Source: a virus
IMG/VR virus record: IMGVR_UViG_3300033148_004740
Span: 1 to 64,000 of that record
DNA: 64,000 nt
Direction: 5' to 3' (one strand)
Position numbers and translations under genes: made by a program. The notes under the pieces are model-generated. The model searched no databases. It was not told where the DNA came from and worked only from the letters and a program-made list of their open reading frames with translations. Of this stretch, positions 37,146-56,427 are shown piece after piece (position 1 is the stretch's first letter; every line of letters starts with the position of its first letter).

Positions 37146-37200
37146 GAGACCACTCCTCTGGAGAGTATAGCATGTAGAGAAGTGGGGACAATAGTGGGGA

Positions 37201-38016
37201 TTAGGCCTCTTCTGGGTGATACACCTGGAAATAGAGCTTGTACATCTCACGGTGCTCAGAGGCTCCGTCAAACCCGTCTATGTCCTTGTATTTATGCATC
37301 CATTCCTTGACCCGCTCGTCAATGTTTCCTCGGATCAAATAGCTGTCAAACTGATGCCAGGTATGGATACCTAGACTAGCAGAGATGTCTCGGAGGTTGA
37401 TCCACCTCTCATTCTTCTTCCCTAGATTGGGACCACCACCACCACAGAATAGGTTTCGAGCTCCACGGTGCCAGATCACATTCTCCTGCTTGATGTGCTC
37501 ATAGACCAGCTTAGTGTCCATAATCTGGTGAGGATGGTTCTTCAGATGCTCATGTGGATTACCAGCATAAACAGTATCGGCGTAGCGCTTGAAGAGCAGA
37601 CGCTTGTGATACTTATCAAGGTTCTCCCAGACGCGCTCTGGTCCCTTGTAGGAGACTGAGCGACACTGGAACCCAATCATATCCTTCCCACGTCCCTCAG
37701 CTAAATCTACGAGGTCTGAAAGCCTTTTCATAGTCTTCTCTTCGAAGAGCTCATCTGGATCAGAGACCAGGGCCCAGCTGTCAGCCGGGACATGCTTGAG
37801 GTAGTTGTTCCTCTGCTGAGAGAAGTTGTCGTTCCAAGGACGGAGGAAGAACTTGAGCTTTGGCTCTTTTTCCTCCCAGTTTCTCATATAGAAGATAGTA
37901 TCATCTACTGAGCCACCATCTACAATAACTGCCTTGTCTACATAAGGGAGATATCGGCGCAAGCAGCGGACTGTCTCTGACAGTCTATTCTGTGTCATAG
38001 AACAGTAAGTAATCAT
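37201..38016 (-). CDS. Glycosyltransferase family 2
   Basis: IVDGGSVDDT, FSQQRNNYL, WALVSDPDE, RLLF...YAGNPHE. Confidence 0.88.
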   Translation of the reverse strand: MITYCSMTQNRLSETVRCLRRYLPYVDKAVIVDGGSVDDTIFYMRNWEEKEPKLKFFLRPWNDNFSQQRNNYLKHVPADSWALVSDPDELFEEKTMKRLSDLVDLAEGRGKDMIGFQCRSVSYKGPERVWENLDKYHKRLLFKRYADTVYAGNPHEHLKNHPHQIMDTKLVYEHIKQENVIWHRGARNLFCGGGGPNLGKKNERWINLRDISASLGIHTWHQFDSYLIRGNIDERVKEWMHKYKDIDGFDGASEHREMYKLYFQVYHPEEA

Positions 38017-38017
38017 C

Positions 38018-38752
38018 TTATAGCCTTTCTGGTTTTCGTGCCTTTGCTACTACGTATCCCTGTTTCCTCTGACCCTTCCAAAAACAGTCGGGAGGGATAC
38101 GTTTCCCATCAGAGTAGAATAGATCTACTGCATAGAAGCCTGCTTTGATTAGCAGGCCGTAAGCTTGTCCCGGAGTATAGCAAACTAAGTGCTTCTGGTC
38201 GGTGCCATGGGCACAGTGGGAAGAAGCGGCGGGCCATTCAAGTGTGATAAATCCACCTGGCACGAGGAGCCTGAACTGTTCCTTGAGAAGGAGGATAGGT
38301 GCGATTGCATGCTCTAGTATCTGACAGCCTAATACCATGCGGACTGATTCATCAGGGAAGGGGATAGCCTCGCAGCAGCCTTCCTTGATATAGTCTCCAA
38401 GACCAAGGATGTCTCGAGCAAAATGAATATTCAGATTACCAATGGTTATTCCATAAGCTTCTAGCCCATGAGCTCGCGACACTAGCATCTCTCTGCCACT
38501 CCCCGCTCCCAGATGGAGAATTCTGTCTCCCTTTTCAAGATGCTTAATGTACCCATAGACGCGCTTCCATGAAGCAGAGTCATCTACTACCTCTAGGTCC
38601 TGGGTCTTCAGCTGGTTATGGAACTGCTCTCCTAGCGACAGAATCTGTATGGTTCCTAGACCAAAGGGCTCATGTTTCCGCTTCTGAGACTTGAACTTCT
38701 TGAGCTGAGCAAGTCTTTCTTTCTCGGTAATGCTATATGTTCCAGTACTCAT
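38018..38752 (-). CDS. Class I SAM-dependent methyltransferase
   Basis: RILHLGAGSG, IPFPDES, QILEHA, RLLVPGG. Confidence 0.85.
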   Translation of the reverse strand: MSTGTYSITEKERLAQLKKFKSQKRKHEPFGLGTIQILSLGEQFHNQLKTQDLEVVDDSASWKRVYGYIKHLEKGDRILHLGAGSGREMLVSRAHGLEAYGITIGNLNIHFARDILGLGDYIKEGCCEAIPFPDESVRMVLGCQILEHAIAPILLLKEQFRLLVPGGFITLEWPAASSHCAHGTDQKHLVCYTPGQAYGLLIKAGFYAVDLFYSDGKRIPPDCFWKGQRKQGYVVAKARKPERL

Positions 38753-39548
38753 CCGGGACCTCCGTTACCCTTTCATCTTGATAATGGACTATCTTTACAC
38801 TAGGTGAGAGTTTCTTCTTATGGAGAGTATAGAAGTATTGAAGATCCTCAGGAACAGCCCAGTGCTTGTACTGTGACATAGCTAGACTGAGGCTAGTCTG
38901 AGTGAATGACTGGACAAAATCCTCTCCTAGAGATAGGACCTTTTCTGCCATCTCATACCACTTCTCCGGGAAGCCGAGACCTGTCTTGTAGATAACCAGT
39001 CCAGAACAGAAGTAGAAGTTGGCAAGCTTCTTATCTATGTGGGACAGGACCCTCTCTTTAGGAGGGTCGATCCCAGCTACCTCGTACATCTTCTGCCATA
39101 GGTGGTTGTCCTCTGGTCTAGCCCACTTGTGGGTACTCCAGGTCGAGGGAGAGGCACCGACCTCTGCTCCTTCAACGCCTTCGATCAACTGCTCTAGTGC
39201 CCCCTTGTACATGTACATGTCAGTGTCCATCCACATAGCATATGGGGTGGAGACAGATTTTGTTAGAGCGCAGGATAGAATCTTTTGGAAGAGTGGAGGG
39301 TGACTTTTCTCGGGGTAGATTGGCCGTCGCTGACAGCCCAAATCCTTTAGTTGTTTTTCGTGCTCGGGGTAAGGGGGGAAGTCAGACCTGAAGAATGTGA
39401 GGATAGGAAGATCCGCGTGCTCCCCACCATTCATTCTGATTGAACGGACCAGGCGCACAGCTAACTCGCTGTATCTCTTGAACCGATGAGAACCAATCTT
39501 CCCTATCTGGCGTCCGTCACAGGACGTGATGATTGTGAGCTTGTCCAT
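38733..39548 (-). CDS. GT-A glycosyltransferase (GT8-like)
   Basis: FQKI, WMDTDMY (DxD), YFCSGLV, TQTSLS, IVHYQ. Confidence 0.72.
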   Translation of the reverse strand: MDKLTIITSCDGRQIGKIGSHRFKRYSELAVRLVRSIRMNGGEHADLPILTFFRSDFPPYPEHEKQLKDLGCQRRPIYPEKSHPPLFQKILSCALTKSVSTPYAMWMDTDMYMYKGALEQLIEGVEGAEVGASPSTWSTHKWARPEDNHLWQKMYEVAGIDPPKERVLSHIDKKLANFYFCSGLVIYKTGLGFPEKWYEMAEKVLSLGEDFVQSFTQTSLSLAMSQYKHWAVPEDLQYFYTLHKKKLSPSVKIVHYQDERVTEVPDEYWNI

Positions 39549-40153
39549 TACATCACCACCTGGTAGAGATACTCACTAGGCTTCTTGAATTTGATCATCT
39601 TCAAACCAAACTGTTTCATAAAGTACCCCCATCCTGAACGTGTAAAACTATACTTGTCATGCATCTGCTCTTTGAACTCAGGGGCATCAGGAAACGTTAA
39701 TTTGTAGTTGTCTTTTCTAAACGTGTTTTCGCTACACATAAAGTAACCACCTGGTTTGAGTATGCGAACAATCTCTCGAAGCACAACCGCCTTGTCAACA
39801 TGGTTATTGTGCTGAAGAACAGCAGCAGTAAAGACTAGGTCAATACTGTCCTTTGCCAGATGAAGACTGTTCCAAAGAGTCCTTTGGAAACGACAGCGAG
39901 CTGACTCTCCACGTTCTTTTGCTTGCTTTACCATGTCGTCGTTTTGATCAAGACCGAGGTAATCATACTCTTTGAAAAGATCTCTCCAGAGCCCGCTACC
40001 ACAGCCAAAATCAACAACCTTCTCTATCTCCTTAAGGCCACGAACCCACTCTCTAAGCACATAGTCATCATTGAAATTATGTAGCTTAAGATTGTCTTGA
40101 GCCTGTTCGTCCGCATGTCTAGACCAAACATCGATATCACGGCCATCTGCCAT
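39548..40153 (-). CDS. Class I SAM-dependent methyltransferase (paralog of 40744)
   Basis: VVDFGCGSG, LGLDQN, DLVFTAAVLQH, RILKPGG, EN. Confidence 0.9.
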   Translation of the reverse strand: MADGRDIDVWSRHADEQAQDNLKLHNFNDDYVLREWVRGLKEIEKVVDFGCGSGLWRDLFKEYDYLGLDQNDDMVKQAKERGESARCRFQRTLWNSLHLAKDSIDLVFTAAVLQHNNHVDKAVVLREIVRILKPGGYFMCSENTFRKDNYKLTFPDAPEFKEQMHDKYSFTRSGWGYFMKQFGLKMIKFKKPSEYLYQVVM

Positions 40154-40156
40154 ACC

Positions 40157-40744
40157 TTATCCTCCCCATTCAAATAGAGTTTTTCTAAAGTTCCAAAAGT
40201 TCCACGAGGTGTTAAGGGTAAAGAGGTCTCTTATAATGATACCGTTAAGCTTTGCATAGGCAGCTCGATGTTCTTCAGCAGTTTTGAAATGCCCCTCTGC
40301 CACAAAAGAGACTGGGGCCATCTTTATTCCAGCTGATTTCCAGACCGCTAGGCGATGCCTTCCCTCGTTAATCCTATTCAGCTCTCCTTCGACCCTGGGT
40401 CTGTTCTCTCGGATGATCCTGGGTAGCCAATTTTCTGGGCGGAGCATTTGCTCCAAGTGCCTTGAAGATAATCTATCGGACAAGACAGTGAAAGAGGTGG
40501 TTATTGGCGAGAGATATCCCCAGTTCTTAATAGAGTGGACCAGGTTATAGAAGTTCTCTTTACGTGACTTCGTGTTCTTCTTGTCCCCATAAAGAAAAAT
40601 CGCTTGCTTGAGCATACCCTCCTCATCCTCTGCTAGAGCAAGCTCAACAAAGTCCGTTAGACCTTTCATCTTCCCTGGCCAGTCAATGATTACAGAATCG
40701 ATATCGACGAAGCCAAGGTTAACAAACTCTGGGGCATGAAACAT
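40157..40744 (-). CDS. ParB/Srx-fold protein
   Basis: NLVHSIKNWGYLSPI and INEGRHRLAVW (ParB-like GxxR motif). Confidence 0.55.
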   Translation of the reverse strand: MFHAPEFVNLGFVDIDSVIIDWPGKMKGLTDFVELALAEDEEGMLKQAIFLYGDKKNTKSRKENFYNLVHSIKNWGYLSPITTSFTVLSDRLSSRHLEQMLRPENWLPRIIRENRPRVEGELNRINEGRHRLAVWKSAGIKMAPVSFVAEGHFKTAEEHRAAYAKLNGIIIRDLFTLNTSWNFWNFRKTLFEWGG

Positions 40745-41361
40745 TACTCTCTCCTAAACAGGAAGTGTCCGTGACCTGCTTCATGTAAGCAAGTAAAGCC
40801 ATGTCTCTTGAGCTTACTCTTCCAGCCAGCGGCCGTATAGGAACACTTGTTAATAGAGTGAGTCGCACTTAGGTCTGAGTAACCGATGTTGTTATGCTCA
40901 TAGATAGTATTCTCTTTCATGTAGAACAATGCCCCTGGTTTGAGGAGGAACTTAACCCCAGCAAGGATAGCTTCCTGTTGGTCAACATGGTTATATTGAA
41001 GCACATGGAATGTCAGAGCAAGGTCAAAGCTCGATTCCAGATCAGGAAGAGACTTGTCTAGCTCCTGAGCATCAGCGAGGCGTAGGTCTAGATGAGGAAA
41101 GACCTTCTTGCCATTCTCTACCATAACCTTTTCTCTATCTATGCCCACATAGTCAGAGTTAGGGAAGTACTTATGTCTACGACCAATCCCACTTCCAACA
41201 TCAACAACCCTCTTAACGTCCTTGAGGTCTACGTGCTCTAGTAGAGCCAGAGCTCCATCTTCTCCTTCTAGGTCCTTAGTCTTAAGCATCCGTTCCATTC
41301 GGTCGGTACCCCAATAATTAGCTCCGGTTCTTTCTTCCCATCCTAGAATTATTTTCTTCAT
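40744..41361 (-). CDS. Class I SAM-dependent methyltransferase
   Basis: VVDVGSGIG, VGIDRE, DLALTFHVLQY, LLKPG, EN. Start refined to ATG 41361. Confidence 0.9.
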   Translation of the reverse strand: MKKIILGWEERTGANYWGTDRMERMLKTKDLEGEDGALALLEHVDLKDVKRVVDVGSGIGRRHKYFPNSDYVGIDREKVMVENGKKVFPHLDLRLADAQELDKSLPDLESSFDLALTFHVLQYNHVDQQEAILAGVKFLLKPGALFYMKENTIYEHNNIGYSDLSATHSINKCSYTAAGWKSKLKRHGFTCLHEAGHGHFLFRRE

Positions 41362-41363
41362 GC

Positions 41364-42356
41364 CTACTTCCTTCCAATTAGTGCTAACAGTTTCTGGCAA
41401 AACACATCATAGCTATGAAAAGTTTGAACATACTTTTGACCTGTACAAGTAGTATCTTTGTAGAACTTCTCATTAGAGAACAATCTTTTCATTAGCTGTA
41501 CAGCCTCACTGCCTGAGCGATAGGTAGGATAAGCTGGGCAGTTGTCCAACGGTCCCCCTTTTGGACTTAGTATAGGAACACCTGCAGCTAGACTCTCTAG
41601 AGGAGAGCCCCCGAAGGCTCCTAGGACAGGCAGGATTATGCTTAGCTTACTGCTCCGTACATGGTTCATGAACTCGTCCCTCGAGCAGCGTGGCAATATC
41701 TCGATTCGGTCCGCAGGAAAGGCACCAAAGGAGTGGTTCCTAATCTGTTCTGGGACCTTAGGATAGTGCTGCTTTTCATAGCCGGTAAGAACAGTCAACA
41801 TTAGATCCTTATCTGTCCTCATCATTTTTAGAATCTCTGTGGCTATAGGACCCTTGAGATCTTGTCTCCCACTCTGTCCATCCCTGGATGTCCATACAAT
41901 CTTCTTCCTATCGAACCCCATTGGAGGAAGGAACTCTTTGGCCGCTGGGAAAGGAAGGTCACGCATGCGGTTACCAAAATGTTTCTGAAGCCCACCGTGT
42001 CTAATCCCAGATGGATATGGATGAGTTGCTACCCAGTTCATACTAGGAGGGTTAAACTTTGATGGACGTTCCCAGTATGTAAGCACAGAGAGCTTTACCC
42101 TTGGAGGGATAGGCTGGGGAACACCAGGGTTCTCGTATGAAAGAAAGATATGATAGAGCTTGTTAGGATCAATTCCATACACAACTCCATCCAAAGAAAC
42201 CTCTGTATTCTTCCAGGGGCGGTGAGAGGTTGGCTCTATATCGGGATGCAGAGCCATAGCCTCGAGAGCATTCAAGGTGTATCGAGCTTCACCTCGAGCT
42301 CCAGAGTCATATCCCTTAGGTGTCTCACAAAAGAGACGCACCGCTACGTTAATCAT
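41364..42356 (-). CDS. GT-B glycosyltransferase (GT4-like, divergent)
   Basis: C-terminal SSKLSII...FGGSPLESLAAGVPIL matches the GT4 E-x7-E region. Confidence 0.72.
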   Translation of the reverse strand: MINVAVRLFCETPKGYDSGARGEARYTLNALEAMALHPDIEPTSHRPWKNTEVSLDGVVYGIDPNKLYHIFLSYENPGVPQPIPPRVKLSVLTYWERPSKFNPPSMNWVATHPYPSGIRHGGLQKHFGNRMRDLPFPAAKEFLPPMGFDRKKIVWTSRDGQSGRQDLKGPIATEILKMMRTDKDLMLTVLTGYEKQHYPKVPEQIRNHSFGAFPADRIEILPRCSRDEFMNHVRSSKLSIILPVLGAFGGSPLESLAAGVPILSPKGGPLDNCPAYPTYRSGSEAVQLMKRLFSNEKFYKDTTCTGQKYVQTFHSYDVFCQKLLALIGRK

Positions 42357-43009
42357 ATCTTAGTCACCTGAAAGATTATCTGTTCACTGACCCTAGAGAC
42401 TTCCTGAAACTCTATTTGTTCTGTCTTGACGAACTCTTCCCAAGCTCTCTCTTCTCCTCTTCCCCATTCATCAAATGCAATAAAGGTCCCTGCAACAATA
42501 AGACTGCGACACCAACCTAAAACAGTCACAGCAGAAGAGTAGAGATCACTATCAACATGGATAAGAGCTGCCTGGTTGCCAGGAAAACCTAACTTTGTCT
42601 TGAGTTCATCGTTACAGACATCACTATAGAAGCCTGGGACCAGCTCTACATTAGAGAGGCCATCAATAGCTTTTTGGGATATAGCAATTGGGTAAGAGAA
42701 CCAGCCTTTCCTCCACACAGAACCAGGTTTTCCTTTGATTGGCTCATCATGAGGAAGGCCCTGGAAAGAATCAAAGCCATAGAACTTGTTAGGCATCTCC
42801 AGCTCTTCAGCTAGGGCTGTCATATTTGCTAACGTGTAGCCTGAACCAACGCCAAACTCGAGAACTAAGCCAGTCTTTTTCTCTGTTTTTAGACGAAAAA
42901 TAATAGCTAGCAAACCTTTTAATCGAGCTTCTGTAGAAGAGCCGTGAGCCTGTGTCCATCCACGTCTTTCTTTCTGTGCTTGTGCAAGCGTCATTGACTT
43001 GTTCGTCAT
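42353..43009 (-). CDS. TylF/MycF-family sugar O-methyltransferase
   Basis: LEFGVGSG, YGFDSFQGLP, LVPGFY, HVDSDLYSS, FIAFDEW. Confidence 0.88.
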   Translation of the reverse strand: MTNKSMTLAQAQKERRGWTQAHGSSTEARLKGLLAIIFRLKTEKKTGLVLEFGVGSGYTLANMTALAEELEMPNKFYGFDSFQGLPHDEPIKGKPGSVWRKGWFSYPIAISQKAIDGLSNVELVPGFYSDVCNDELKTKLGFPGNQAALIHVDSDLYSSAVTVLGWCRSLIVAGTFIAFDEWGRGEERAWEEFVKTEQIEFQEVSRVSEQIIFQVTKI

Positions 43010-43010
43010 C

Positions 43011-43463
43011 CTATTTCTCCTCAATACCCCACTCATATCCCCAAGGGTTCTCGTGTGGATTTACTCTGTCCTCATCTGGCTTCTCTCTATTGAACACATG
43101 TGAGGAAATATTGACAACTAGAGCAGGCTCCTCAGAGATACACATCCAACCATGCCAGATACCTGGTGGGATAACGATCATCTTGGGAGCCATGGGAGAC
43201 AGGTGATGTTCCTCAACCTCTCCTTCTGTTGCTCCAAAGGCGTTTGCCTCTTGGATAAGGACCAGCTTAATCTGTCCCTGTACACAGACAATGTGATCAG
43301 TCTGTATCTGATGCTGATGGAATCCCTTGACTACATCAGGATAGGTAGCAGAGAGATAGACCTGGCCGAACCGTTGGAAGAAAGGATCATCGGCGCGCAG
43401 CATCTCATAGAGATAACCTCTATCGTCTAGATGTGTTGTCAGTGTCTTGACTGTTGCTATCAT
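43011..43463 (-). CDS. rmlC: dTDP-4-dehydrorhamnose 3,5-epimerase-like cupin
   Basis: DDRGYLYE, VVKGFHQH, QTDHIVCVQG, IPPGIWHG. Confidence 0.8.
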   Translation of the reverse strand: MIATVKTLTTHLDDRGYLYEMLRADDPFFQRFGQVYLSATYPDVVKGFHQHQIQTDHIVCVQGQIKLVLIQEANAFGATEGEVEEHHLSPMAPKMIVIPPGIWHGWMCISEEPALVVNISSHVFNREKPDEDRVNPHENPWGYEWGIEEK

Positions 43464-43839
43464 AAAGTTTCCTTTCTCTTTCGATATATTCCTTGTGTTG
43501 TATCTCTACGAACTCGGTGATCTCATCCCAATCATTCCTGAAAGGAATGGCCTTATCGTCAATATACCATACAGCTACAGGCTTATTCGAATCTGATATC
43601 TCGTCGTATGGGATCTTGCCCTTATCGAGTATATCCTTCATATTTTTCACATGTTTGGCTGAATCCTCAAAAAATTTATCATTGCTACGGCAAGAGAAGA
43701 TAACTATCTTGAACCCTAGCTCCTGAAACCTCGTGAGAGCGTCACGAACTCCAGGCTTAAGGCTTGTTTCCCTAAGCTGTGGGTCATGCTCAACAATGGT
43801 TCCATCAAAGTCTACACAAATTGTTGCCTTAAACGTCAT
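43420..43839 (-). CDS. HAD-superfamily phosphatase (capsule-biosynthesis type)
   Basis: VDFDGTI, FSCRS, KP...YIDDKA. Confidence 0.85.
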   Translation of the reverse strand: MTFKATICVDFDGTIVEHDPQLRETSLKPGVRDALTRFQELGFKIVIFSCRSNDKFFEDSAKHVKNMKDILDKGKIPYDEISDSNKPVAVWYIDDKAIPFRNDWDEITEFVEIQHKEYIERERKLYDSNSQDTDNTSRR

Positions 43840-46734: not shown

Positions 46735-47702
46735 GTCGAGCCAGTCTCCTTCCACCACTTGGTGTACCACTCGATAGCTTCATCTAGTCCTTCACTGAGG
46801 TCATACTTCCAATCCCATCCAAGAGCCTTTAGCTTACTTGGATTCAGTGACTGGTCATTGATTTCAAAGAGGTCTCTGTCTACCATTTGGATAGGAAGGT
46901 TCTCGTTGATCTTCATACACATCATGTTCATGATGTCACCAATCTTGTGCATCAAGCCATGACCAATGTTGTATGCTTCACCAGGAACCCCTTTCTCCAT
47001 GAGGACCATGTAGGCACTGATTGCATCCGAGACATGAATGAACTCTCTCTGCATCATCGCTGCATCAGTATAGAGGACAGGGGATGTCCCATTGAGGAGA
47101 CGAAGGATGGTTCCGGGAACAAGGCGGGAGAGGTTAAGGTCTCCTGCGCCATACAGGTTACCACAGCGAACAGTACAGATGGGGAGGCCATATGTCTTAG
47201 CATAGGACCGAGCGATCATATCTCCAGCAGCCTTAGAGGTACAGTAAGTATCGGTAACCTCGAATGGTGTGTCCTCTTCATAGCCACCCTCAGGAGAGCT
47301 ATCTCCATAGGCCTTGTCTGTCGACATATGGATAACTTTCTTGAGTCTCTTGTGCTTCTTCTCTTGGTCTCTTAGGGCCTCGAAGAGATTGACACTGCCC
47401 ATCACGTTGACATTGTATGCTGTCCACGGGTCAGCATCACATGTCTTGACGATAGGGATAGCGGCGAGGTGGACAACATAGTCAAGCTCATACTTGCTGA
47501 CTACGTCACGGATAAGGTCACGGTCCATGATGTCTCCACGGATCTCTGCTCCCTTCTTGTGGACCTCGTCTAGGAGATCCTTGTCTGTCTTCCTATTGTA
47601 GTCACGTACTAGAGCAATAGGAACATGTCCATCGTCCAGTAGTCTTCTCAATAGGCGCCGACCTACAAAACCGTTAGCCCCGGTAATTAGTACATTTGCC
47701 AT
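46716..47702 (-). CDS. NAD-dependent NDP-sugar 4,6-dehydratase (RfbG/CDP-glucose dehydratase-like SDR)
   Basis: ITGANGFVG, VHLAA, STDKAYG, YCTSK, RCGNLYGAGDLN.SRLVP. Confidence 0.9.
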   Translation of the reverse strand: MANVLITGANGFVGRRLLRRLLDDGHVPIALVRDYNRKTDKDLLDEVHKKGAEIRGDIMDRDLIRDVVSKYELDYVVHLAAIPIVKTCDADPWTAYNVNVMGSVNLFEALRDQEKKHKRLKKVIHMSTDKAYGDSSPEGGYEEDTPFEVTDTYCTSKAAGDMIARSYAKTYGLPICTVRCGNLYGAGDLNLSRLVPGTILRLLNGTSPVLYTDAAMMQREFIHVSDAISAYMVLMEKGVPGEAYNIGHGLMHKIGDIMNMMCMKINENLPIQMVDRDLFEINDQSLNPSKLKALGWDWKYDLSEGLDEAIEWYTKWWKETGSTWNPAK

Positions 47703-48414
47703 AAAATTCCTCGATTCCGTGAGGGTGAGTTCCAGTATATCCTACTAGGGTGTCAGCCTCATCGTATTTAAATGGAGCAAAGTTTGCTACCTCATCTTCT
47801 GGATGGAACATATGATCTAGATTTCGAATCCTTGCCGTAACGTCTTCTTCCTGTCCCATGCGGGAGTAATGATAGATCCAATAAGGAGCACGCTGCACGC
47901 CTCCAGATCGTCTCACCAGGTACATCCCGTCTCCACCCACGACATGTGTTCCAGGTCTAAAGATTCTGCCTAGCCAGGTCTCGTGGGCAGGTGCTCTTCT
48001 CTTTAGGTTCTTCCAGAAGTAGGTACGATAGAGCTCTACCTGAGAGACGTTAGCAGGCAGCTGCCCCAAATATTCCTTGAGAAAATAGAAGTCTTTCTCA
48101 TGTATCATCTCATCTGCTTGCATATAGACTATCCAATCTGTCTTCTTGCTCACTAGGGGAAGAATCTTGTTAGCCTGAGTAGCAAGCTCTTCTCCCATAG
48201 TGATTCCCATGTCCCATGTACTGTGAAGTACAGAGACCGCAGTGTTCTTCATACGCTCATGAAGCCAATGAATCTTCTCCAAAGTCCTGTCCTCTGAGGC
48301 AGGGTCACAGTTCACAATCACATGGTCGCACAACTTAGCCAGGCTATAGATACATTGACGCCAGGGATACTTAAGCTTGTCCCCGTTGCGAACCAATGTG
48401 ACGCCTGTTAGCAC
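47674..48414 (-). CDS. Glycosyltransferase family 2-like
   Basis: GVTLVRNG..LKYP, SEDRT, YMQADE, YHYS. Confidence 0.8.
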   Translation of the reverse strand: MLTGVTLVRNGDKLKYPWRQCIYSLAKLCDHVIVNCDPASEDRTLEKIHWLHERMKNTAVSVLHSTWDMGITMGEELATQANKILPLVSKKTDWIVYMQADEMIHEKDFYFLKEYLGQLPANVSQVELYRTYFWKNLKRRAPAHETWLGRIFRPGTHVVGGDGMYLVRRSGGVQRAPYWIYHYSRMGQEEDVTARIRNLDHMFHPEDEVANFAPFKYDEADTLVGYTGTHPHGIEEFYGKCTNYRG

Positions 48415-49016
48415 TCCTTGCCTCCCTCTATAGTGACACCAGCTTCCTTAGCGAGCCTGGCATATAGTGCCTGGCGAGTAGCAAGCTTCTCGAATGACTT
48501 GAAGACATCATGATAATGATGGATGATAGCGCCTTCCTGTACTCGAGTAACCTCTCCTCCATGAAAATACTCATGGAGCTCACGCTGCCAAACAAAGTCT
48601 AGGCGATTCTGAAAGAACCTAACCTGTAGATCTGGGTATGCGTCTACCTCAGTCTGCTTCTTTCTCTCGATATCTAGCCACCTCATGCGAGGGAAAGAGT
48701 AGGCTTCCTTGTTCTCTCGCATAAGAGCAACCATTCTCTGTTGGGTAGACTCGAGACCCTCATCAGCATCAATCATCAGGACCCAGGGAGACCTTGCTAG
48801 ATGAGCTGTCAGCGTCCTCATGGAGGCGAAGTCTGTGAGCCCGGCTCGGTAGACTCTGGCCCCAAGACTCTTTGCTAAGGCTACTGTGTCATCTGTAGAC
48901 CCAGCATCAACAACAACCCATTCTTGGAGAAGGGGACCCAGGGAATGCATAACCGAGTTGTACATATGCTCCAGACAGTTCTCTTCGTCCTTAACGAACG
49001 TACATAGACTGATCAT
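48408..49016 (-). CDS. Glycosyltransferase family 2
   Basis: FVKDEE, VVDAGSTDDT, DFASMR, WVLMIDADE, YPDLQVRFF, ELHE. Confidence 0.9.
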   Translation of the reverse strand: MISLCTFVKDEENCLEHMYNSVMHSLGPLLQEWVVVDAGSTDDTVALAKSLGARVYRAGLTDFASMRTLTAHLARSPWVLMIDADEGLESTQQRMVALMRENKEAYSFPRMRWLDIERKKQTEVDAYPDLQVRFFQNRLDFVWQRELHEYFHGGEVTRVQEGAIIHHYHDVFKSFEKLATRQALYARLAKEAGVTIEGGKEC

Positions 49017-49579
49017 TATTTCTTCGCCACTACAGTAATGTTATGAGAGTCGTCCTCGGTAACTACCTGGACAATCTCTCGGCAGCCACAGCCCAGCACA
49101 AGGCCTTCTAGCAAACCTGCAGTGAACCCAGCCATATGATAGTTGAGACCATAGTCCTGTCCTCCATAGAGGAGCCTTGATGCCTCGAAGGCTGGAAGCT
49201 CTTTGTCCAACAGAGCCTTAGCTATCTTTGCCATGTCAGGGACACGTACAATGAACTCTCCCTCCGGCTTCAATAGCCGGATCCACTCACTGAGAACCTT
49301 CTTGGTATGATGATAAGAGAAGTGCTCGAGTACATCATAAGCTAAGATCTGCTCAGCTACATTGCTAGGAAAGAACGGCATGTTACGAACATCTGCTCGC
49401 AGAGTTAATCCATCCCATGGAACAAGATCAATGTTGACATAACCCTCTCTAATGTCTTCTCCACATCCTAGATTGAGCTTAGGGTTCTCCTTGTAGAAGT
49501 CCATCAAGCCCTCGAAGCTATCCTGTGGAATAGGTTGCTCGGTAAAATCAAACAATACTTCTGGTTCTTCTTCAGACAT
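49016..49579 (-). CDS. Methyltransferase type 11-like
   Basis: KLNLGCG, YVNID, DVLEHF, RLLKPEG, RVPD. Confidence 0.85.
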   Translation of the reverse strand: MSEEEPEVLFDFTEQPIPQDSFEGLMDFYKENPKLNLGCGEDIREGYVNIDLVPWDGLTLRADVRNMPFFPSNVAEQILAYDVLEHFSYHHTKKVLSEWIRLLKPEGEFIVRVPDMAKIAKALLDKELPAFEASRLLYGGQDYGLNYHMAGFTAGLLEGLVLGCGCREIVQVVTEDDSHNITVVAKK

Positions 49580-49580
49580 G

Positions 49581-50699
49581 TTACACCTTTATTCCTTCCA
49601 ATCTGGCTTTCATTGCTTCGCCGATCTTCTTCCAAGAGAAATTCTGTTCGACAAAAGCTTTTCCTAATGACCCAGCAGCCCATGCTGCGCCCTGGTTCTC
49701 GAATACAAACCTCATCTGTTTACGTGCGTCTAATAGACTTGGCTCAGCCCAGGTCATTTCTCCCGTATACATTGGCCAAGGCATTCCCCAGACAGGGGCC
49801 TTGGTATACTTGACTGGGTAAGCCTGTCCTACTTGAATGAATTCATCGCTCCCGCTATACCCAGTAGCTATAACTGGATTTGCCTCTGCCATTGCCTCTA
49901 CCATAGGAATACCAAATCCCTCACATTTATGCAAAGAGACATAACAGTCTCCCTGGATATGCAGGCAGCGGATCTGTCCTCTTGAGAGAAGGCTAGAGAT
50001 GAGCAGAATCTTTGGGAAGCTAGGAAGATGTAGACTATCTTTGATCTGTTTTACCTGTCTTCGGATGACAGCTATATCTTCTTCCATACCTGGATTCAAG
50101 CAATAGCTTTTCATGACCAGGCGGACCTTCTCCTCTGCTTTGAACTCTGTCAAGAATGCTCTCAGAAGAGCAGCAGGATTCTTCCTCTCTAGCCACTGGA
50201 AGATAGAATAGAAGGTAAACTCTCCTTCTTCAGCAGGTTCAAGCACGGGATTTTTTGATACCTCTTCCTCTTGGTTGAAGTTGAAAGTATGAGGGAAACA
50301 GTGGATAGGAATTGTGATACCAGAATCCTTGAACACCTTCACATTGTACTGACTAGGGACCCAGACTTCATCCAGGGTGTTGATCTTAGTAACCCAGTCC
50401 CGTGGGAGCTGATCCGTTTCCCACGCAGCATAGCCAATATTGTATCTGCCAGGCTTTACCAACTGTGAGTAGTTAGGAGGGGTAGCATGGAGAATGAAGA
50501 TCTTGTCACCAATGCGAGCCTTCTGGAGCTTAGTGATGAGTTTTCCCATCTCTCCAAGAGCTGGTCTCTTTTGTTCAAAACTAATGGGAGCCACGTTCAG
50601 GTCTACTCCTGCTAGGTACAGTGCTGCGATGTTGTTCCTTGCCGCTTCTGCATAGCCAGACCCATCTAGACAGGCTCCTACGTATGTTACTTGTACCAT
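49581..50699 (-). CDS. Glycosyltransferase family 4
   Basis: SGYAEAAR, AWETDQLP, DEVWVPS, ERKN, EGFGIPMVEAMA, TGYSG. Confidence 0.92.
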   Translation of the reverse strand: MVQVTYVGACLDGSGYAEAARNNIAALYLAGVDLNVAPISFEQKRPALGEMGKLITKLQKARIGDKIFILHATPPNYSQLVKPGRYNIGYAAWETDQLPRDWVTKINTLDEVWVPSQYNVKVFKDSGITIPIHCFPHTFNFNQEEEVSKNPVLEPAEEGEFTFYSIFQWLERKNPAALLRAFLTEFKAEEKVRLVMKSYCLNPGMEEDIAVIRRQVKQIKDSLHLPSFPKILLISSLLSRGQIRCLHIQGDCYVSLHKCEGFGIPMVEAMAEANPVIATGYSGSDEFIQVGQAYPVKYTKAPVWGMPWPMYTGEMTWAEPSLLDARKQMRFVFENQGAAWAAGSLGKAFVEQNFSWKKIGEAMKARLEGIKV

Positions 50700-51958
50700 T
50701 ACTGTCCTCCCCTTAGCTGCATTGAAGGTAACCTAGGAGTCTCTCTCTTCATTGTGACTCGAGCAAAGAGATCGACCCATGCCTTTGTGACAGCTCTCCA
50801 GTCGTGCTGGATAGCCCAGCTACGTGCTAGGCGGGCTTTTTCGTTACCGTACTTGGGTCCAGCCATAAAAGCTTTCGTCATCTGCTCAACGATCTCTGGA
50901 AGTAGTCCCTTTGGTCTGTACCCAGAGTTGTCTATCCAAATCTGATCTTTGCACTCATACATGTACCCTCTCTCACTGTCTTCCCCAAGCTGCTGAGGCA
51001 TAGAGGTGTTTCTGGGAGCTACTACTGGGACACCTGCGGCCATAGCCTCTGTTACGGTTAGCCCCCACCCTTCTCCTAGGTGAGTGGTGAGGAAAACATC
51101 TGCCATGTTATACAGCATGTTCAGCTTCTTAGAAGAGATAGGTTGCGCGGGGTTATACCCTACTGGGTAGATGATGTCTTCGCTCTTAGAGAGGCCAAGG
51201 GACCCTATTGCCTTCAGCATATCTCCACCCTGGTCTGTGACTGCAGAGTGGAGATACATCTTGGCAGTTGGAAAGCGTTCTTTGAACTTCTTGAAAGCTA
51301 GGAAAGAGTAGGGAAGCTGCTTCCTAGTAGAGTTACGATTCACATTAATGATGACCGGAGTCCCCTCTTCAACTCCAAGAAAAGTCTTTCTAACTTCATC
51401 GTTCTTCTCTTTAGATCTGGGAGTATAGATCGCACTATCTACCCCATGAGGAATCTCTAGGAGAACCTTCTCGAGATCTGGGAAGGTATGGAGCGTTCGC
51501 TCCTTCCCATGCTTGGTATAGCAGACCGGGATATCAACGGCTCTCAAAAAGCGGGAAGCCTCGGTGGGAACATTACAGTCGACCGGGTAGTAGTAGATAA
51601 AGGTTGGGGGCTTGTGCCCCTTCTTCTTACACTCGTTCTTGAACTTCACCAACTCGTCTGCGACAGCGTCAGTCACATAGAGATCATTACAGACCCAGAC
51701 AATATCATATGGCTGTTCGTACAGAGTCTTGATGAACATCTTCATCCCGTGTGGATCACGGGGGTCCATTAGTTTAGCTGGCTGCATGAGCCAGGGAACT
51801 ACATTACGGTCGATGAAGCTTCCGTGAAAGTTAATGGCAAGATGATGGATGTCGTAGAGTCCCGTTGCGTGCAGAGCCCCTACAACATGCTTGCTCACGA
51901 TACCAAAGCCTGTTCCAGCAATCGCAGAATCAGACCAGCATAATACTTTACGTTTCAT
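50699..51958 (-). CDS. Glycosyltransferase family 4
   Basis: TGFGIVS, YYPVD, IPHGVD, NRNSTRK, GEGWGLTVTEAMAAGVPVV. Confidence 0.92.
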   Translation of the reverse strand: MKRKVLCWSDSAIAGTGFGIVSKHVVGALHATGLYDIHHLAINFHGSFIDRNVVPWLMQPAKLMDPRDPHGMKMFIKTLYEQPYDIVWVCNDLYVTDAVADELVKFKNECKKKGHKPPTFIYYYPVDCNVPTEASRFLRAVDIPVCYTKHGKERTLHTFPDLEKVLLEIPHGVDSAIYTPRSKEKNDEVRKTFLGVEEGTPVIINVNRNSTRKQLPYSFLAFKKFKERFPTAKMYLHSAVTDQGGDMLKAIGSLGLSKSEDIIYPVGYNPAQPISSKKLNMLYNMADVFLTTHLGEGWGLTVTEAMAAGVPVVAPRNTSMPQQLGEDSERGYMYECKDQIWIDNSGYRPKGLLPEIVEQMTKAFMAGPKYGNEKARLARSWAIQHDWRAVTKAWVDLFARVTMKRETPRLPSMQLRGGQ

Positions 51959-53920
51959 TTAGACCTCTTCTATCCTTAGTCTTTGATTGCCTGTTCTTTC
52001 CAGGTGATCGATACATGAGTTAACAACCTCTGACGGCTGAATGATCTTCCAGCAGAGCTCACCAATGCTACAGCCCTTGTACCAGCAATCCCAGGTTCCC
52101 ATATTTTGTATACAGAATGTAGTACTATTTTCGACCGTAATATCATATACATACTCATCCCGACGATCGGAAAGCTCAATCTTTTTGATTGGAACATATA
52201 GATAATCTTCATCAACTATGTGTCTACTCCACGTCGCCTGTTGATTAGGAATATATACTCTGTAGATGATTGCATCCTGCTTGTAATTAGTATGATGTTT
52301 TCTCTTGTATATCCGAGACCAGATACCAAACCTAGTCAGTAGCTCTTGAGTTCCATAAGCCATCAGACGAGAAGCTGTACTCAGAACTTTATTATCCTTA
52401 TCTTGATAACCGTCTCCTTGTAGATAGCCAGTAATAAAACTTTCAATCGCAATATCACTAGCATTCCATAGAAGAAAAGGAATCTCCTTTTGGACCGCTC
52501 TTCTTTTTCCAAAGAAAGTATCTATATACTCAACAAGAGGCTGCGAATAAATTTCCACCCTAGTAGAATTGTCCTTAGTAGACGGATAGACTCCAACTGT
52601 TGCCGAATATTTGGAGCGACCAAAGCCTCTTAGGGTCTCAATAATCTGTTCTTCATGTGAGCCTACAGTAAAGACAACGGACTTACGATCTGGCCGTAGA
52701 TGACCCTCCGCTGCATAAAGTCCCAACACTTGATATGTAAGCAGATCAACCTCTGGAAGAATAGGATCTGCCTTGTTCCGAGGAACACACAAGAAATCAT
52801 TATCGGTTAACTCTTCTGCTGGAATCCATTCTCTGTTCGCAGTAAAGTTTTTTCTACGAAAGGCCGATGATGAGCCCTTAACGGCAAGCATTTTATGGTC
52901 CTGTGTCACAGTAATTGGCTCGTTTGAGCCAAAATATTCTATGTCATAGAGCTTTCTACCTTTGCGTAAATTCTTATGAACCTTAGTAATTTTGTTCCAA
53001 TTGGAGTCGGTTGTTTTAACAGTTTGCCCGACTTCTAGATCCTGGATTTCTCGGTATCCACTTGCTGTTAAAACTAAGCTCTCCTTAACTACACAAGGAC
53101 ACGGGTTGTACTGGTCACCTTTCCAAACAGCTACAGCCTTGTTGTAGTGGTTGATACGGGCAGCAGGATGTGTAGGACCAAAGTAAGATACTGTGGGGAT
53201 ACCAAGAGCCCCTGCAATATGGAGAAGGGACGAGTCAGGGCAGAGGACCAGATCACATGCAGCAGTGATAGCAGCTATCTCCCGAACCTTCTTGTCCTTT
53301 AAGAGAAGACCTCCAGGAAGGTTATCCCACATGACATTGCTTTGCCAGTCACTCTGGTGGGTAAAGATAATTGGTTTTGCTTTGATTCGCTGACCTAACA
53401 TGACCAAGATCTCTTTGAGCTTTCTATGGTCAAATGATCTGATCTTATTACTGGCAAATGGCTGTACTGCGATCTTGGGATAGAAATGATATTGTCTGAC
53501 TACATCCCGTCCTTCTTCTAGCTCCCCTTTCGTCAGATAGATGTGAGGAACAGAGTCTTCTAGTTTGACACCAGCTGCATTAGCAAACAGATCAATACGA
53601 TTGATTGGAGGGTTCCCGTGAACCTCATACTCTGTGCACGGACAATGCAGGTCTAAGACTGCATCAAACTGATCTCTGACTAAATGGTTCTTGTCTACGA
53701 ACCCGTTGATGTCTGGGTTAAACATAAGAATATCAACTAGAGCTCCGCCAAGATAGCGTGTATCTGTGGCTACTATGATCTGACCATCAGGGAACTCTTT
53801 CTTGAGGGCTCTGATAGTAGGGGTCAGCATAATCACATCACCGATACCCTGACCACGGATCACACAGATCTTAGGGGCACCGGTAGAGATCAGTCTGCGA
53901 AGACGGTCTAAAATTTTCAA
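51959..53920 (-). CDS. Glycosyltransferase family 9 (heptosyltransferase-like) interrupted by an intein
   Basis: IRGQGIGDVIMLTP, DSSLLHIAGALGIPTVSYFGPT; the spliced product restores NPCP-CWYKGC...LCW. Confidence 0.9.
   Translation of the reverse strand: MKILDRLRRLISTGAPKICVIRGQGIGDVIMLTPTIRALKKEFPDGQIIVATDTRYLGGALVDILMFNPDINGFVDKNHLVRDQFDAVLDLHCPCTEYEVHGNPPINRIDLFANAAGVKLEDSVPHIYLTKGELEEGRDVVRQYHFYPKIAVQPFASNKIRSFDHRKLKEILVMLGQRIKAKPIIFTHQSDWQSNVMWDNLPGGLLLKDKKVREIAAITAACDLVLCPDSSLLHIAGALGIPTVSYFGPTHPAARINHYNKAVAVWKGDQYNPCPCVVKESLVLTASGYREIQDLEVGQTVKTTDSNWNKITKVHKNLRKGRKLYDIEYFGSNEPITVTQDHKMLAVKGSSSAFRRKNFTANREWIPAEELTDNDFLCVPRNKADPILPEVDLLTYQVLGLYAAEGHLRPDRKSVVFTVGSHEEQIIETLRGFGRSKYSATVGVYPSTKDNSTRVEIYSQPLVEYIDTFFGKRRAVQKEIPFLLWNASDIAIESFITGYLQGDGYQDKDNKVLSTASRLMAYGTQELLTRFGIWSRIYKRKHHTNYKQDAIIYRVYIPNQQATWSRHIVDEDYLYVPIKKIELSDRRDEYVYDITVENSTTFCIQNMGTWDCWYKGCSIGELCWKIIQPSEVVNSCIDHLERTGNQRLRIEEV
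52088..53095 (-). mobile_element. Intein (336 aa) with LAGLIDADG endonuclease and atypical C-terminal Asp
   Basis: Starts CVVKESLVLT; block B TVTQDHKM; GLYAAEG and GYLQGDG; block F YVYDITVE; ends NMGTWD (codons TGG GAT) before +1 Cys (TGC). AT-rich. Confidence 0.9.
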
Positions 53921-53933
53921 GGTGGGTCCTTTC

Positions 53934-55348: not shown

Positions 55349-55357
55349 TGGATACCC

Positions 55358-55771: not shown

Positions 55772-55781
55772 TGCTCACTCC

Positions 55782-56417: not shown

Positions 56418-56427
56418 TTAGCTTCTC

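Follow-up and report, generated by a model that had tools for sequence, protein, structure and literature searches.

A run of 20 minus-strand genes in an uncultured phage, at positions 37201-53920 of the 64,000-nt window analysed here, is supported as a genuine glycan-building system that consists of soluble enzymes only and depends on host nucleotide-sugars. Judged from sequence comparison with related phages, it has a new two-part organization, in which a conserved triad of glycosyltransferase genes (GT9-GT4-GT4) is followed by a cassette that differs from phage to phage. Our best reading, though a tentative one, is that the glycan is attached to a virion protein of the phage and so would form a coat on the particle.

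The record from which the window is taken is a 126-kb fragment, 66% complete according to CheckV, of a genome of about 190 kb. Two complete, collinear relatives, here called G001 and G002 (191 and 189 kb, with terminal repeats), were available for comparison. The lineage probably consists of uncultured, virulent, contractile-tailed phages of about 190 kb. No tyrosine integrase was found in the record, G001 or G002, which makes a virulent lifestyle probable and speaks against lysogenic seroconversion.

The ORF listing contains exactly 20 minus-strand ORFs between 37201 and 53920, all co-oriented, as the original prediction had stated. In longest-ORF coordinates, 16 of the 19 junctions between them abut or overlap, and no gap exceeds 3 nt. 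GC content is 0.45-0.48, equal to that of the flanks. The minus-strand block that holds the cluster also carries primase and nuclease genes, so co-orientation is no proof of late expression. Eight cluster genes encode glycosyltransferases (two GT2, one GT2-like, one GT8/GT24-like, two firm GT4, one weak GT4 and one GT9). The other 12 encode five SAM methyltransferases, an NDP-hexose 4,6-dehydratase, an RmlC-superfamily cupin, and DegT, ATP-grasp, HAD, ParB/Srx-like and DUF4915-like proteins; 15 of the 20 genes have direct family support from Pfam or NCBIfam. The predicted lack of polytopic membrane proteins was confirmed: none of the 20 proteins has a membrane helix or a hydrophobic segment typical of such proteins, and no polytopic membrane protein was found anywhere in G001 or G002. 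Sugar nucleotidyltransferases (PF00483, PF12804, PF01467) are likewise absent from the record, G001 and G002. These absences and the family assignments agree with the earlier proposal of a glycan made by soluble enzymes from host nucleotide-sugars. To call the system ‘self-contained’, however, was an overstatement, as the record is only about 66% complete, and the proposed likeness to the glycan coats of giant viruses fails with respect to autonomy, because the phage encodes no sugar-activation step.

The first triad gene (51959-53920; all coordinates given here are on the minus strand) matches Pfam Glyco_transf_9, Intein_splicing, Hint_2 and LAGLIDADG_3. It is split by a 336-aa LAGLIDADG intein at 52088-53095, to which the original prediction made no reference, and the predicted spliced product has 317 aa, the same length as an intein-less homologue, P0003, that is 80% identical. 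In structural alignments (VIA-align Z) the AF2 model of P0003 (pLDDT 93) most resembled 3tov (26.8), followed by WaaF (24.8), TibC (23.2) and WaaC (22.4). Family models rejected the enzyme as a member of either the TibC/AAH or the WaaC/WaaF family: TIGR04414 (TibC/AAH) gave no match, and the WaaF/WaaC models gave 31.5 bits (TIGR02195) and 26.9 bits (TIGR02193), far below cut-offs of 135-185. By sequence, GT9 thus stands slightly closer to WaaC/WaaF than to TibC, whose family glycosylates proteins. With its closest cellular match in 185,579 species genomes only 33% identical, this GT9 is phage-specific, without close cellular relatives. Inteins are a further new feature of the lineage, in which sequence analysis places LAGLIDADG inteins within GT9, GT4 and GDP-mannose dehydratase genes.

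The second triad gene, GT4a (50699-51958; Pfam Glycos_transf_1, E 5.9e-14), is 37-57% identical across 12 triad loci and in G001 and G002. It has homologues in the cultured phages Tetrasphaera TJE1, Synechococcus S-CBS4, where the gene lies between portal and capsid genes, and Flavobacterium immuto. The third, GT4b (49581-50699; Glycos_transf_1, E 3.1e-6), has a mean column identity of 54% in an alignment of 12 orthologues, and homologues in 127 Streptomyces phage records and Flavobacterium immuto. Among cultured phages, those of Actinobacteria (Tetrasphaera, Streptomyces, Rhodococcus), hosts that have no LPS, carry the nearest homologues of GT4a and GT4b.

The full triad occurs in 12 viral contigs, directly downstream of baseplate-like genes, and in 23 of 49 viral loci GT9 lies downstream of such genes and shares their strand. 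In the window, the corresponding baseplate- or virion-like genes (starting at 55358, 55782, 56428, 58638 and 61949, within 55358-64000) were recognized by PHROG, an F5/8 type C domain and synteny; 56428-58638 is a PHROG ‘virion structural protein’, and 58638-61949 carries the F5/8 type C domain. The triad proteins are 42-47% identical to those of G001, compared with 38-41% for the neighbouring virion proteins, and this comparable conservation is consistent with vertical inheritance alongside the virion module. The slot beyond the triad is variable: it holds GDP-mannose dehydratase and GT4-like genes in L006, and a true RmlC, GT2s and a rhamnosyl-O-methyltransferase-like gene in G001. In one contig, L005, the same site is filled with unrelated genes, and no GT9 was found across its 59 kb. 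In both complete relatives the cluster sits where virion genes give way to replication genes, a typical hotspot for accessory genes, so position alone is weak evidence.

Downstream of the cluster, 25037-36531 encodes two giant repetitive fibre-like proteins (2407 and 1419 aa), which are candidate acceptors. The original prediction described them as Ser/Thr/Gly-rich and as the most plausible acceptor. In fact they are rich in Gly (12.5-13.9%), Ala (12.4-13.8%) and Asp, with Lys at 1.0-1.4% and only mild enrichment in Ser (7.9-9.2%) and Thr (7.3-9.6%). Homologues were found only for the N-terminal ~55-140 residues, in L006 and G001; neither G001 nor G002 has the giant fibres themselves. Both relatives nevertheless keep a cluster of similar size, so synteny with giant fibre genes, a check proposed beforehand, is not preserved. 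No Ser/Thr-rich tract was found near members of the GT9 clade in 52 loci. The adjacent fibres are not the most plausible acceptor but only one candidate.

All eight predicted glycosyltransferases were recovered, though with unequal support: GT9, two GT4s and two GT2s by Pfam, the third GT2 by hhalign, the GT8 by a structural model and the third GT4 weakly. The two Pfam-supported GT2s are GT2b (48408-49016; Glycos_transf_2, E 5.9e-10), with orthologues in L089, L092 and L087, and GT2a (37201-38016; 1.2e-12), the last gene of the cluster, with a 28% identical homologue in L087/G001. The GT2-like GT-A enzyme (47674-48414; orthologues in L089, L092, L093 and L120) has no direct Pfam match, but hhalign against a GT2 alignment (probability 96.8%, E 2.7e-10) places its acidic motif on the DxD(E) of GT2. 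A GT8/GT24-like retaining GT-A enzyme is predicted at 38733-39548 from an AF2 model (pLDDT 95.7), for which Foldseek returned the UGGT catalytic domain (1.6e-11), then glycogenin, XXYLT1, LARGE1 and WbbM; all 45 homologues retain its DxD motif unchanged, and four of them match Pfam Glyco_transf_8. The probable GT4-like GT-B enzyme (41364-42356) matches Glycos_transf_1 below cut-off (E 6.9e-4) and the GT4b family over the C-terminal nucleotide-sugar motif (hhalign, 55.6%, E 1.2e-4), with no match in PDB sequences.

Family searches also upheld the predicted dehydratase, aminotransferase, ligase, phosphatase and five methyltransferases. The NDP-hexose 4,6-dehydratase, an extended SDR (46716-47702; Pfam Epimerase 6e-54, GDP_Man_Dehyd 1e-48), has GxxGxxG, YxxxK and S-T-D-K motifs; its best NCBIfam match, below cut-off, is dTDP-glucose 4,6-dehydratase (3e-55), followed by CDP-glucose dehydratase and LegB. 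The DegT/DnrJ/EryC1 PLP sugar aminotransferase (44748-45866; Pfam 6.5e-69) retains the PLP lysine motif, and its best PDB relatives are the C3 aminotransferases DesV and QdtB and the C4 enzyme PseC, with PseC and DesI as best NCBIfam matches, below cut-off. An amide-forming ATP-grasp ligase of the PRK12767 type (43829-44764; Pfam PylC-like_N, ATPgrasp_Ter, ATP-grasp_3; NCBIfam NF009405 5.9e-52, below cut-off; PDB 2pn1 7e-17) adjoins a small HAD-type phosphatase (43420-43839; NCBIfam BT0820-type HAD phosphatase 1.5e-8, capsule-biosynthesis phosphatase 1.7e-6, HAD-IIIA 9e-6; Pfam matches weak). The cupin (43011-43463; Pfam dTDP_sugar_isom 1.6e-11, FdtA 1.1e-7), which has a 48% identical orthologue in L092, had been called RmlC. 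That assignment stands for the superfamily and not for RmlC itself: in the PDB, 3ejk (‘dTDP sugar isomerase’) matches at 9e-13, RmlC entries only at 1e-3, and QdtA and FdtA at 1e-2, and its activity could be that of an epimerase or of a keto-isomerase. All five methyltransferases match Pfam: a TylF-type sugar O-methyltransferase (42353-43036; TylF 6.1e-10, Methyltransf_24), and four with Methyltransf_11, namely MT1 (38018-38752; 1.5e-8), MT2 (39548-40153; 2e-17), its paralogue MT3 (40744-41400; 3.7e-11; 31% identity, E 4e-16) and MT5 (49016-49579; 1.9e-6, partial domain), found at the same position in L089, L088 and L087. A possible DUF4915-like beta-rich protein (45841-46770), which the original prediction had called a beta-propeller, without a Pfam, NCBIfam or PDB sequence match, resembles structure-atlas clusters (score 0.97-0.98), one of which has DUF4915 in 38% of its members. 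The predicted ParB-like protein (40157-40744) finds language-model and structure-atlas support (‘ParB/Sulfiredoxin domain-containing’ cluster, score 0.93, structural TM 0.54-0.57) and no Pfam or NCBIfam match.

On our best reading, these enzymes form a cytoplasmic, sequential assembly line fed by host nucleotide-sugars. The dehydratase, cupin and aminotransferase would produce an NDP-amino-dideoxyhexose in its 3- or 4-amino form, to which the ATP-grasp ligase would add an amide-linked group, from which the HAD enzyme may strip phosphate, while the methyltransferases would act on sugars. GT9 would attach the first sugar to the acceptor, GT4a and GT4b would complete a conserved core, and the outer part, peculiar to this phage, would come from the five variable transferases. 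Precedent for a virion acceptor comes from cluster O mycobacteriophages, in which, according to the account in PMC11600133 (citing Freeman 2023), three glycosyltransferases and an O-methyltransferase modify capsid and tail-tube proteins.

A serious rival, though a somewhat unlikely one, is that the triad and later transferases build an alternative oligosaccharide on host lipid A-Kdo (LOS-type) or another inner-face lipid acceptor, with export by MsbA/Lpt or other exporters of the host. LPS inner-core synthesis likewise combines GT9 with GT4 enzymes, and LOS/LPS-core synthesis (WaaC/WaaF/WaaG) uses only peripheral, helix-free GT9, GT4 and GT2 enzymes, so the lack of phage membrane proteins fits equally well, a point that the original prediction left out of account. 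Conservation of lipid A-Kdo from host to host could explain why the triad is conserved. GT9 has weak scores with the WaaF and WaaC models and none with that of TibC/AAH, and WaaF and WaaC rank among its best structural matches. Large glycosyltransferase clusters of cyanomyoviruses, moreover, are usually interpreted as modifying the cell surface (PMC12801897). On the other hand, the lineage is probably virulent, and GT9 scores too low to be a WaaC/WaaF equivalent and belongs to a clade without close cellular relatives. The GT4a and GT4b homologues in phages of LPS-free hosts also speak against it.

It is distinctly unlikely that the acceptor is a soluble non-virion molecule, such as a phage or host cytoplasmic protein (for counter-defence or takeover) or a free or small-molecule glycoconjugate. 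Every cluster enzyme is soluble, the slot is a variable hotspot, ParB/Srx-like and DUF4915-like proteins lie inside it, and GT4a weakly matches ‘GT4 in conflict systems’ (PF20706, E 2e-5). That match, however, is below cut-off, no candidate target stands out, and with eight transferases and a dedicated amino-sugar pathway the product should be a long, elaborate glycan, which regulatory protein modification does not usually involve. Glycosylation of phage DNA, giving hypermodified bases that resist restriction, was the alternative named in the original prediction and is very unlikely. Phage glycosyltransferases that decorate 5-hydroxymethyl-pyrimidines are described as well known where PMC12619734 cites Pyle 2024, and the record encodes a dCMP deaminase and a UDG-family protein; but no thymidylate-synthase-type hydroxymethylase was found in the record, G001 or G002, the cluster does not adjoin nucleotide-metabolism genes, and amino-sugar tailoring, an ATP-grasp ligase and five methyltransferases far exceed known DNA glycans. 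A bacterial insert, mis-assembly or contamination, the chimera that had been raised as a concern, is strongly disfavoured, for although bacterial O-antigen or capsule loci typically carry these enzyme families, the cluster matches its flanks in GC, the genes share a strand with and overlap phage genes on either side, related clusters fill the same slot in many independent viral contigs including both complete genomes, and the inteins inside cluster genes are related to other phage inteins.

If LOS-type remodelling were true, the result would be an altered cell surface that might, for example, block superinfection or keep progeny from sticking to debris. Under our preferred reading of a virion acceptor, the fixation of three triad genes and the variation of the rest among relatives suggest that the cluster probably coats a part of the phage with a custom sugar chain.

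The interval 37201-53920 is filled by 20 ORFs on the minus strand. On longest-ORF coordinates, 16 of their 19 junctions overlap or abut and the maximum gap is 3 nt; the GC content of the cluster equals that of its flanks, and a promoter and terminator scan across it gave nothing above shuffled expectation. Pfam and NCBIfam together recognise two GT2, two firm GT4, one weak GT4 and one GT9 glycosyltransferase, five SAM methyltransferases (one of them TylF-type), an extended-SDR 4,6-dehydratase, an RmlC-superfamily cupin, a DegT aminotransferase, an ATP-grasp protein of the PylC/PRK12767 type and a small HAD phosphatase. Direct matches are missing for four ORFs, all on the minus strand. One of these (47674-48414) is a GT2-like transferase by profile-profile comparison (96.8%), with the acidic motif aligned. 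Another (38733-39548) resembles GT8/GT24 retaining GT-A transferases: Foldseek matches its AF2 model (pLDDT 95.7) to the UGGT catalytic domain, glycogenin, XXYLT1 and LARGE1, and its homologues have an invariant DxD motif, with 4 of 45 matching Pfam GT8. The remaining two are a ParB/sulfiredoxin-like candidate (40157-40744; Atlas evidence only) and a DUF4915-like candidate (45841-46770; a DUF4915 lead only). PDB sequence searches with the products of 38733, 47674, 41364 and 45841 returned nothing useful, the ATP-grasp protein found no relative when used as a probe of viral contigs, and megablast with the cluster as query matched no cultured phage. The eight transferases and five methyltransferases of the original prediction are thus essentially right, one GT4 being weak. 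Its RmlC assignment stands at superfamily level but not as RmlC proper (TIGR01221, 27.3 bits against a cut-off of 155.75).

The source record is linear, 126,472 bp long and an estimated 66% complete, and the window is its first 64 kb. PHROGs recognise a large terminase, a portal and a major head protein, marking a tailed phage whose terminase has distant relatives (about 33%) in Moorella, Bacillus 0305phi8-36-like and Acinetobacter ME3 phages. The phage carries bacterial-type replication genes (class II RNR, RecA, PHP plus DnaE polymerase III alpha, and dCMP deaminase) and an Amidase_2 protein as candidate endolysin, and its host is therefore a bacterium. The gene directly upstream of GT9 (53934-54932) has a full-length match to Pfam Volactin, an archaeal actin (E 2.9e-61), and relatives of 55-75% identity on at least 300 viral contigs. 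This match first suggested an archaeal virus, an idea ruled out by RecA, the DnaE-type polymerase III and the Amidase_2 endolysin candidate.

The source record lacks a third of the genome, and we therefore examined two relatives that are complete and have terminal repeats, G001 (191,113 bp) and G002 (188,653 bp). Both are collinear with the source record and carry the cluster; the portion absent from the source record corresponds approximately to G001 positions 65.9-131.6 kb. The Volactin-like gene is optional in the lineage, being absent from both. The GC content of the three genomes is widely spread (36%, 45% and 48%), which suggests different hosts. No tyrosine integrase was found in G001 or G002, and the lineage is probably virulent. 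Two G001 proteins are longer than their counterparts in the source record, namely the terminase (61224-64394; 1056 against 679 aa) and the primase-helicase (167423-171196; 1257 against 855 aa), and further inteins are suspected in them.

To follow the cluster across related viruses, 132 viral loci were gathered by searches with the neighbouring actin-like gene and the GT9 alignment. In 23 of 49 GT9 loci, GT9 follows, on the same strand, homologues of the baseplate-like genes 56428 and 58638. The complete triad of GT9 (51959-53920), GT4a (50699-51958) and GT4b (49581-50699) occurs in 12 loci. The similarity extends further in two of the loci (L089 and L092), where the methyltransferase at 49016, the GT2 transferase at 48408 (GT2b), the GT2-like gene and the dehydratase are ordered as in the window. 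Elsewhere, the genes behind the triad differ: locus L006 carries one methyltransferase, a GDP-mannose 4,6-dehydratase and a pair of GT4-like genes, and G001 carries a true RmlC together with a dehydratase, a DegT-like gene, several GT2s and a set of methyltransferases, one of which is rhamnosyl-O-methyltransferase-like. The triad is 42-47% identical to that of G001, a level close to that of the portal (41%) and of the adjacent virion proteins (38-41%). Since the triad is kept while the content behind it differs between phages, the locus looks, at the level of sequence, like a conserved 'core' with a variable 'outer' cassette. A chimeric insert is excluded by the recurrence of this synteny across viral loci. 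At the syntenic site of locus L005, the genes lie on the other strand and no GT9 is present on its 59 kb; this stretch (2812-5782, minus strand) encodes a staphylococcal-nuclease-like protein, a 619-aa protein in which a MopE-type metal-binding repeat occurs five times, and a trypsin-like peptidase. The glycan cluster of G001 also ends with a trypsin-like peptidase (L145:14175-14852). In two loci (L093:12304-14568 and L120:5858-8122), the GT4b orthologue has 754 aa instead of about 375, and the ~380 residues gained by this insertion or fusion match no intein or other Pfam family.

The GT9 gene that opens the triad is split by a 336-aa LAGLIDADG intein (52088-53095), whose boundaries are confirmed by an intein-less homologue of 317 aa with 80% identity. 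Some 90 metagenomic sequences belong to the family, and many of them come from contigs of 90-200 kb. No cellular relative above 33% identity was found in one genome per species of 185,579 species, and tblastn of the N-extein against phages gave no match. The enzyme scores 51.2 bits with PF01075 (gathering cut-off 22), which places it in CAZy family GT9. More specific models fit poorly: TIGR02195 (WaaF) gives 31.5 bits against a cut-off of 134.6, TIGR02193 (WaaC) gives 26.9 against 185.3, and TIGR04414 (TibC/AAH, cut-off 200 bits) has no match in the source record at E <= 10. The AF2 model of the intein-less homologue (pLDDT 93) aligns in VIA-align with Z 26.8 to the Veillonella GT9 3tov, 24.8 to WaaF, 23.2 to TibC and 22.4 to WaaC, values by which a lipid acceptor cannot be told from a protein acceptor.

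TibC and AAH are bacterial autotransporter heptosyltransferases, known as BAHT (PMC4358343). The modelled GT9-type GT-B fold superimposes on TibC (4rap/4rb4) with an rmsd of 2.9-3.2 over 279-281 residues, both enzymes carry clustered cysteines towards the C-terminus, and cytoplasmic action with a host nucleotide-sugar, as in BAHT, is predicted for the phage GT9. However, the N-terminal beta-barrel of TibC (residues 1-97) is missing from the GT9, which has 317 aa rather than 406 and aligns only from TibC 68-69, and its cysteine spacing, C-x-C-x4-C-x5-C, differs from the four-cysteine iron finger C339/C342/C358/C370 of TibC (PMC4358343). A repeat-rich, Ser-bearing neighbour of the autotransporter-passenger kind, as expected for a BAHT enzyme, was not found beside members of the window GT9 clade. 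As the family models fall short, the TibC barrel is absent and the cysteine spacing is different, the GT9 represents a distinct phage-specific clade, with an acceptor that cannot be read from homology.

Inteins recur in this lineage. Locus L092 (9908-12034) has a GT9 intein at the same site, 45% identical to that of the window; both end in Trp-Asp before the +1 Cys, which is a conserved cysteine of the cysteine cluster of the enzyme. LAGLIDADG/Hint inteins also occur in GT4a (L085:2902-5301 and L094:10945-13491) and in the GDP-mannose 4,6-dehydratase (L006:17229-19226), and the phage DnaE polymerase (5693-9502) is likewise intein-bearing.

Behind the triad, the cluster encodes enzymes that would tailor sugars. 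The dehydratase at 46716 has the NAD-binding GxxGxxG, the catalytic YxxxK and, for the acid/base pair after beta-5, an S-T-D-K motif, and falls short of the NCBIfam equivalog cut-offs. Its Asp-Lys pair resembles the variant found in CDP-glucose and UDP-GlcNAc 4,6-dehydratases, and its nucleotide-sugar specificity is therefore not fixed by sequence. The cupin at 43011 has an uncharacterised 'dTDP sugar isomerase' (3ejk) as its closest solved relative, unlike the G001 protein, which is a true RmlC (E 3e-59). The DegT protein (44748) keeps the PLP lysine and is approximately equidistant from the C3 aminotransferases DesV and QdtB and the C4 aminotransferases PseC and DesI. The genes for DegT, the ATP-grasp protein and the HAD phosphatase are neighbours, and a similar trio in the Campylobacter capsule pathway converts glucuronate into its serinol or ethanolamine amide (PMC11800379). 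This route serves as an analogy only because the ATP-grasp subfamilies differ, Campylobacter Cj1438C being TupA-like (PMC11800379) and the window protein PylC/PRK12767-like.

A simple Kyte-Doolittle scan detected no polytopic membrane protein among the 20 cluster ORFs, and hence no polytopic priming transferase, flippase, polymerase or ABC permease of the kind that defines Wzx/Wzy-, ABC- or synthase-type systems. Nor did the complete relatives contain one, with at most three predicted helices per protein in G001 and at most two in G002. The nucleotidyltransferase families PF00483, PF12804 and PF01467 are absent from the source record, G001 and G002. The predicted lack of membrane proteins and nucleotidyltransferases therefore holds for the lineage, but the system can no longer be called self-contained, as its activated sugars must come from the host. 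Kdo or heptose pathway genes were not detected in the phage. The sole multi-segment protein of the source record (118973-121501; L004:6189-8717) has 842 aa, four hydrophobic segments and a gene adjoining that of the portal; it is perhaps an internal or ejection protein, and no match marks it as a sugar exporter. Small single-helix membrane proteins flank the cluster, two downstream (36532-37271; 99 and 146 aa) and one upstream (54932-55348; 138 aa). The downstream pair belongs to the fibre module rather than the glycan cluster, because the homologues in L005 adjoin its fibre-like genes.

As the acceptor of the predicted glycan we favour a virion protein, with a confidence just short of even. 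The cluster lies beside baseplate genes, its triad is conserved on a par with virion proteins, and the lineage is one of probably virulent phages whose complete members have no export genes anywhere. Furthermore, the nearest cultured homologues of GT4a and GT4b belong to phages of Actinobacteria, which are free of LPS (Tetrasphaera TJE1, 127 Streptomyces phage records and Rhodococcus), and Synechococcus phage S-CBS4 has a GT4 homologue between its portal and capsid genes. Against a virion acceptor, the cluster lies at the virion/replication boundary in the complete relatives. An obvious acceptor sequence was also not found: no ORF in any of 52 GT9 loci has a 40-aa window with at least 55% Ser+Thr, and no window exceeds 50% in the capsid, tail and other proteins of the source record. 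The original prediction had pointed to adjacent Ser/Thr/Gly-rich fibres and virion proteins, but the giant fibres are rich in Gly, Ala and Asp rather than in Ser/Thr, and they are not conserved with the cluster, since G001 has only a 105-aa protein that shares their N-terminus and G002 has none. These fibres (25037-36531) have 2407 and 1419 aa, modules of about 200 aa that repeat, and very little lysine (1.0-1.4%); their N-terminal coiled-coil-like segment is common to the 105-aa G001 protein and the L006 fibre.

Proven precedent for virion glycosylation comes from mycobacteriophages of cluster O (PMC11600133), and cassettes of this type (Corndog-type cluster O phages, Che8 and Myrna; Freeman et al. 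2023, cited in PMC11600133 and PMC12619734) place glycan on virion proteins. They share with the window cluster soluble phage glycosyltransferases, an O-methyltransferase, the lack of export machinery and adjacent virion genes. However, the mycobacteriophage cassettes have 2-4 transferases and no sugar-tailoring pathway, whereas the window has eight transferases, five methyltransferases and an amino-sugar branch, and particle glycosylation is proven for the mycobacteriophages and predicted for the window phage. In tblastn searches of 50,697 phage records with GT9, GT4a, GT4b and GT2b, no Mycobacterium phage was matched.

The main rival, absent from the original prediction, is that the phage would remodel a host glycolipid of the LOS or LPS-core type, which we consider unlikely though well worth keeping in view. 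LOS/LPS-core synthesis relies on wholly peripheral GT9, GT4 and GT2 enzymes, its product being flipped by the host, and so the lack of membrane components does not discriminate between this reading and a virion acceptor. The inner-core enzymes WaaC and WaaF (GT9) and WaaG (GT4) resemble the cluster in pairing GT9 with GT4 and in being peripheral and helix-free, and two of them, WaaF and WaaC, rank with the best structural matches of the GT9. The window enzyme differs from both in its extra conserved cysteine cluster and its phage-specific clade. Transfer to another soluble acceptor seems improbable to us. Glycosylation of DNA is very improbable, because no homologue of the thymidylate-synthase-like hydroxymethylase (PF00303), which supplies hydroxymethyl-pyrimidines in T-even-type systems, was found in the source record, G001 or G002.

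Multi-gene glycan clusters are already known in large phages. Cyanomyovirus S-SCSM2R has a 'cell wall synthesis and modification' or LPS cluster of 22 genes, 13 of them for glycosyltransferases, with unproven function, and P-SSM2 and S-SCSM1 have further such clusters (PMC12801897). Like the window cluster, these sets combine many glycosyltransferases with NDP-sugar enzymes in large contractile-tailed phages, but they include genes related to Kdo and export (KdsA, KdsB, PgaA) as well as other GT families (PMC12801897). A baseplate-adjacent GT9-GT4-GT4 triad and inteins are not reported for them (PMC12801897). Our sequence comparison with these sets consisted of tblastn matches. Flavobacterium phage vB_FspM_immuto (NC_055915.1), a cultured 160-kb myovirus, has an annotated cluster of 13 genes (49172-59988) that begins with adjacent GT4a and GT4b homologues and continues with a GT2, two DegT-type aminotransferases, a methyltransferase, a mannosyltransferase, an NDP-sugar epimerase and another transferase. 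In contrast to the window, however, immuto has no GT9 homologue, its GT4 identities are only about 25%, and its cluster follows lysis and nuclease genes rather than baseplate genes. We found no functional study of this cluster in the literature. In the 'Moraphages', four groups of glycosyltransferases are core (PMC12619734); given the larger genomes and T4-like marker set of these phages, we saw no ground for equating them with the present lineage.

The fibril clusters of Mimiviridae combine amino-deoxy-sugar synthesis, many transferases and methylation for a particle coat with autonomous nucleotide-sugar synthesis. The likeness has a limit, as Mimiviridae make their own nucleotide-sugars while the phage lineage is without any nucleotidyltransferase. 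To our knowledge, glycosylation of phage particles has been shown only in a few mycobacteriophages, with 2-4 enzymes. What is new here is the conserved GT9-led triad beside baseplate genes, the layout of core and variable cassette across a lineage with complete genomes, the amino-sugar, ATP-grasp and penta-methyltransferase tailoring, and the presence of inteins in glycan genes (GT9, GT4a and GDP-mannose dehydratase).

As a tentative and rather doubtful overall picture, a widespread, virulent lineage of ~190 kb would build an LPS-like glycan wholly in the cytoplasm and directly on its own particle proteins, with a conserved three-sugar core begun by the phage-specific cysteine-cluster GT9 and a hypervariable, methylated and amino-acylated outer part, giving O-antigen-like particle 'serotypes' from genes important enough to be intein homing sites. 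The large glycosyltransferase clusters of cyanophages and other big phages are unexplained, and this locus offers a clear and testable architecture. Whichever acceptor is used, glycosyltransferase genes with inteins extend the range of genes known to host them. Should the acceptor be host lipid A-core, this would be an unusual case of LPS being rewritten by a virulent phage. If it is a virion protein, these phages would have O-antigen-like variable coats, which would affect adsorption, defence evasion, particle stability and the immune recognition of therapeutic phages.
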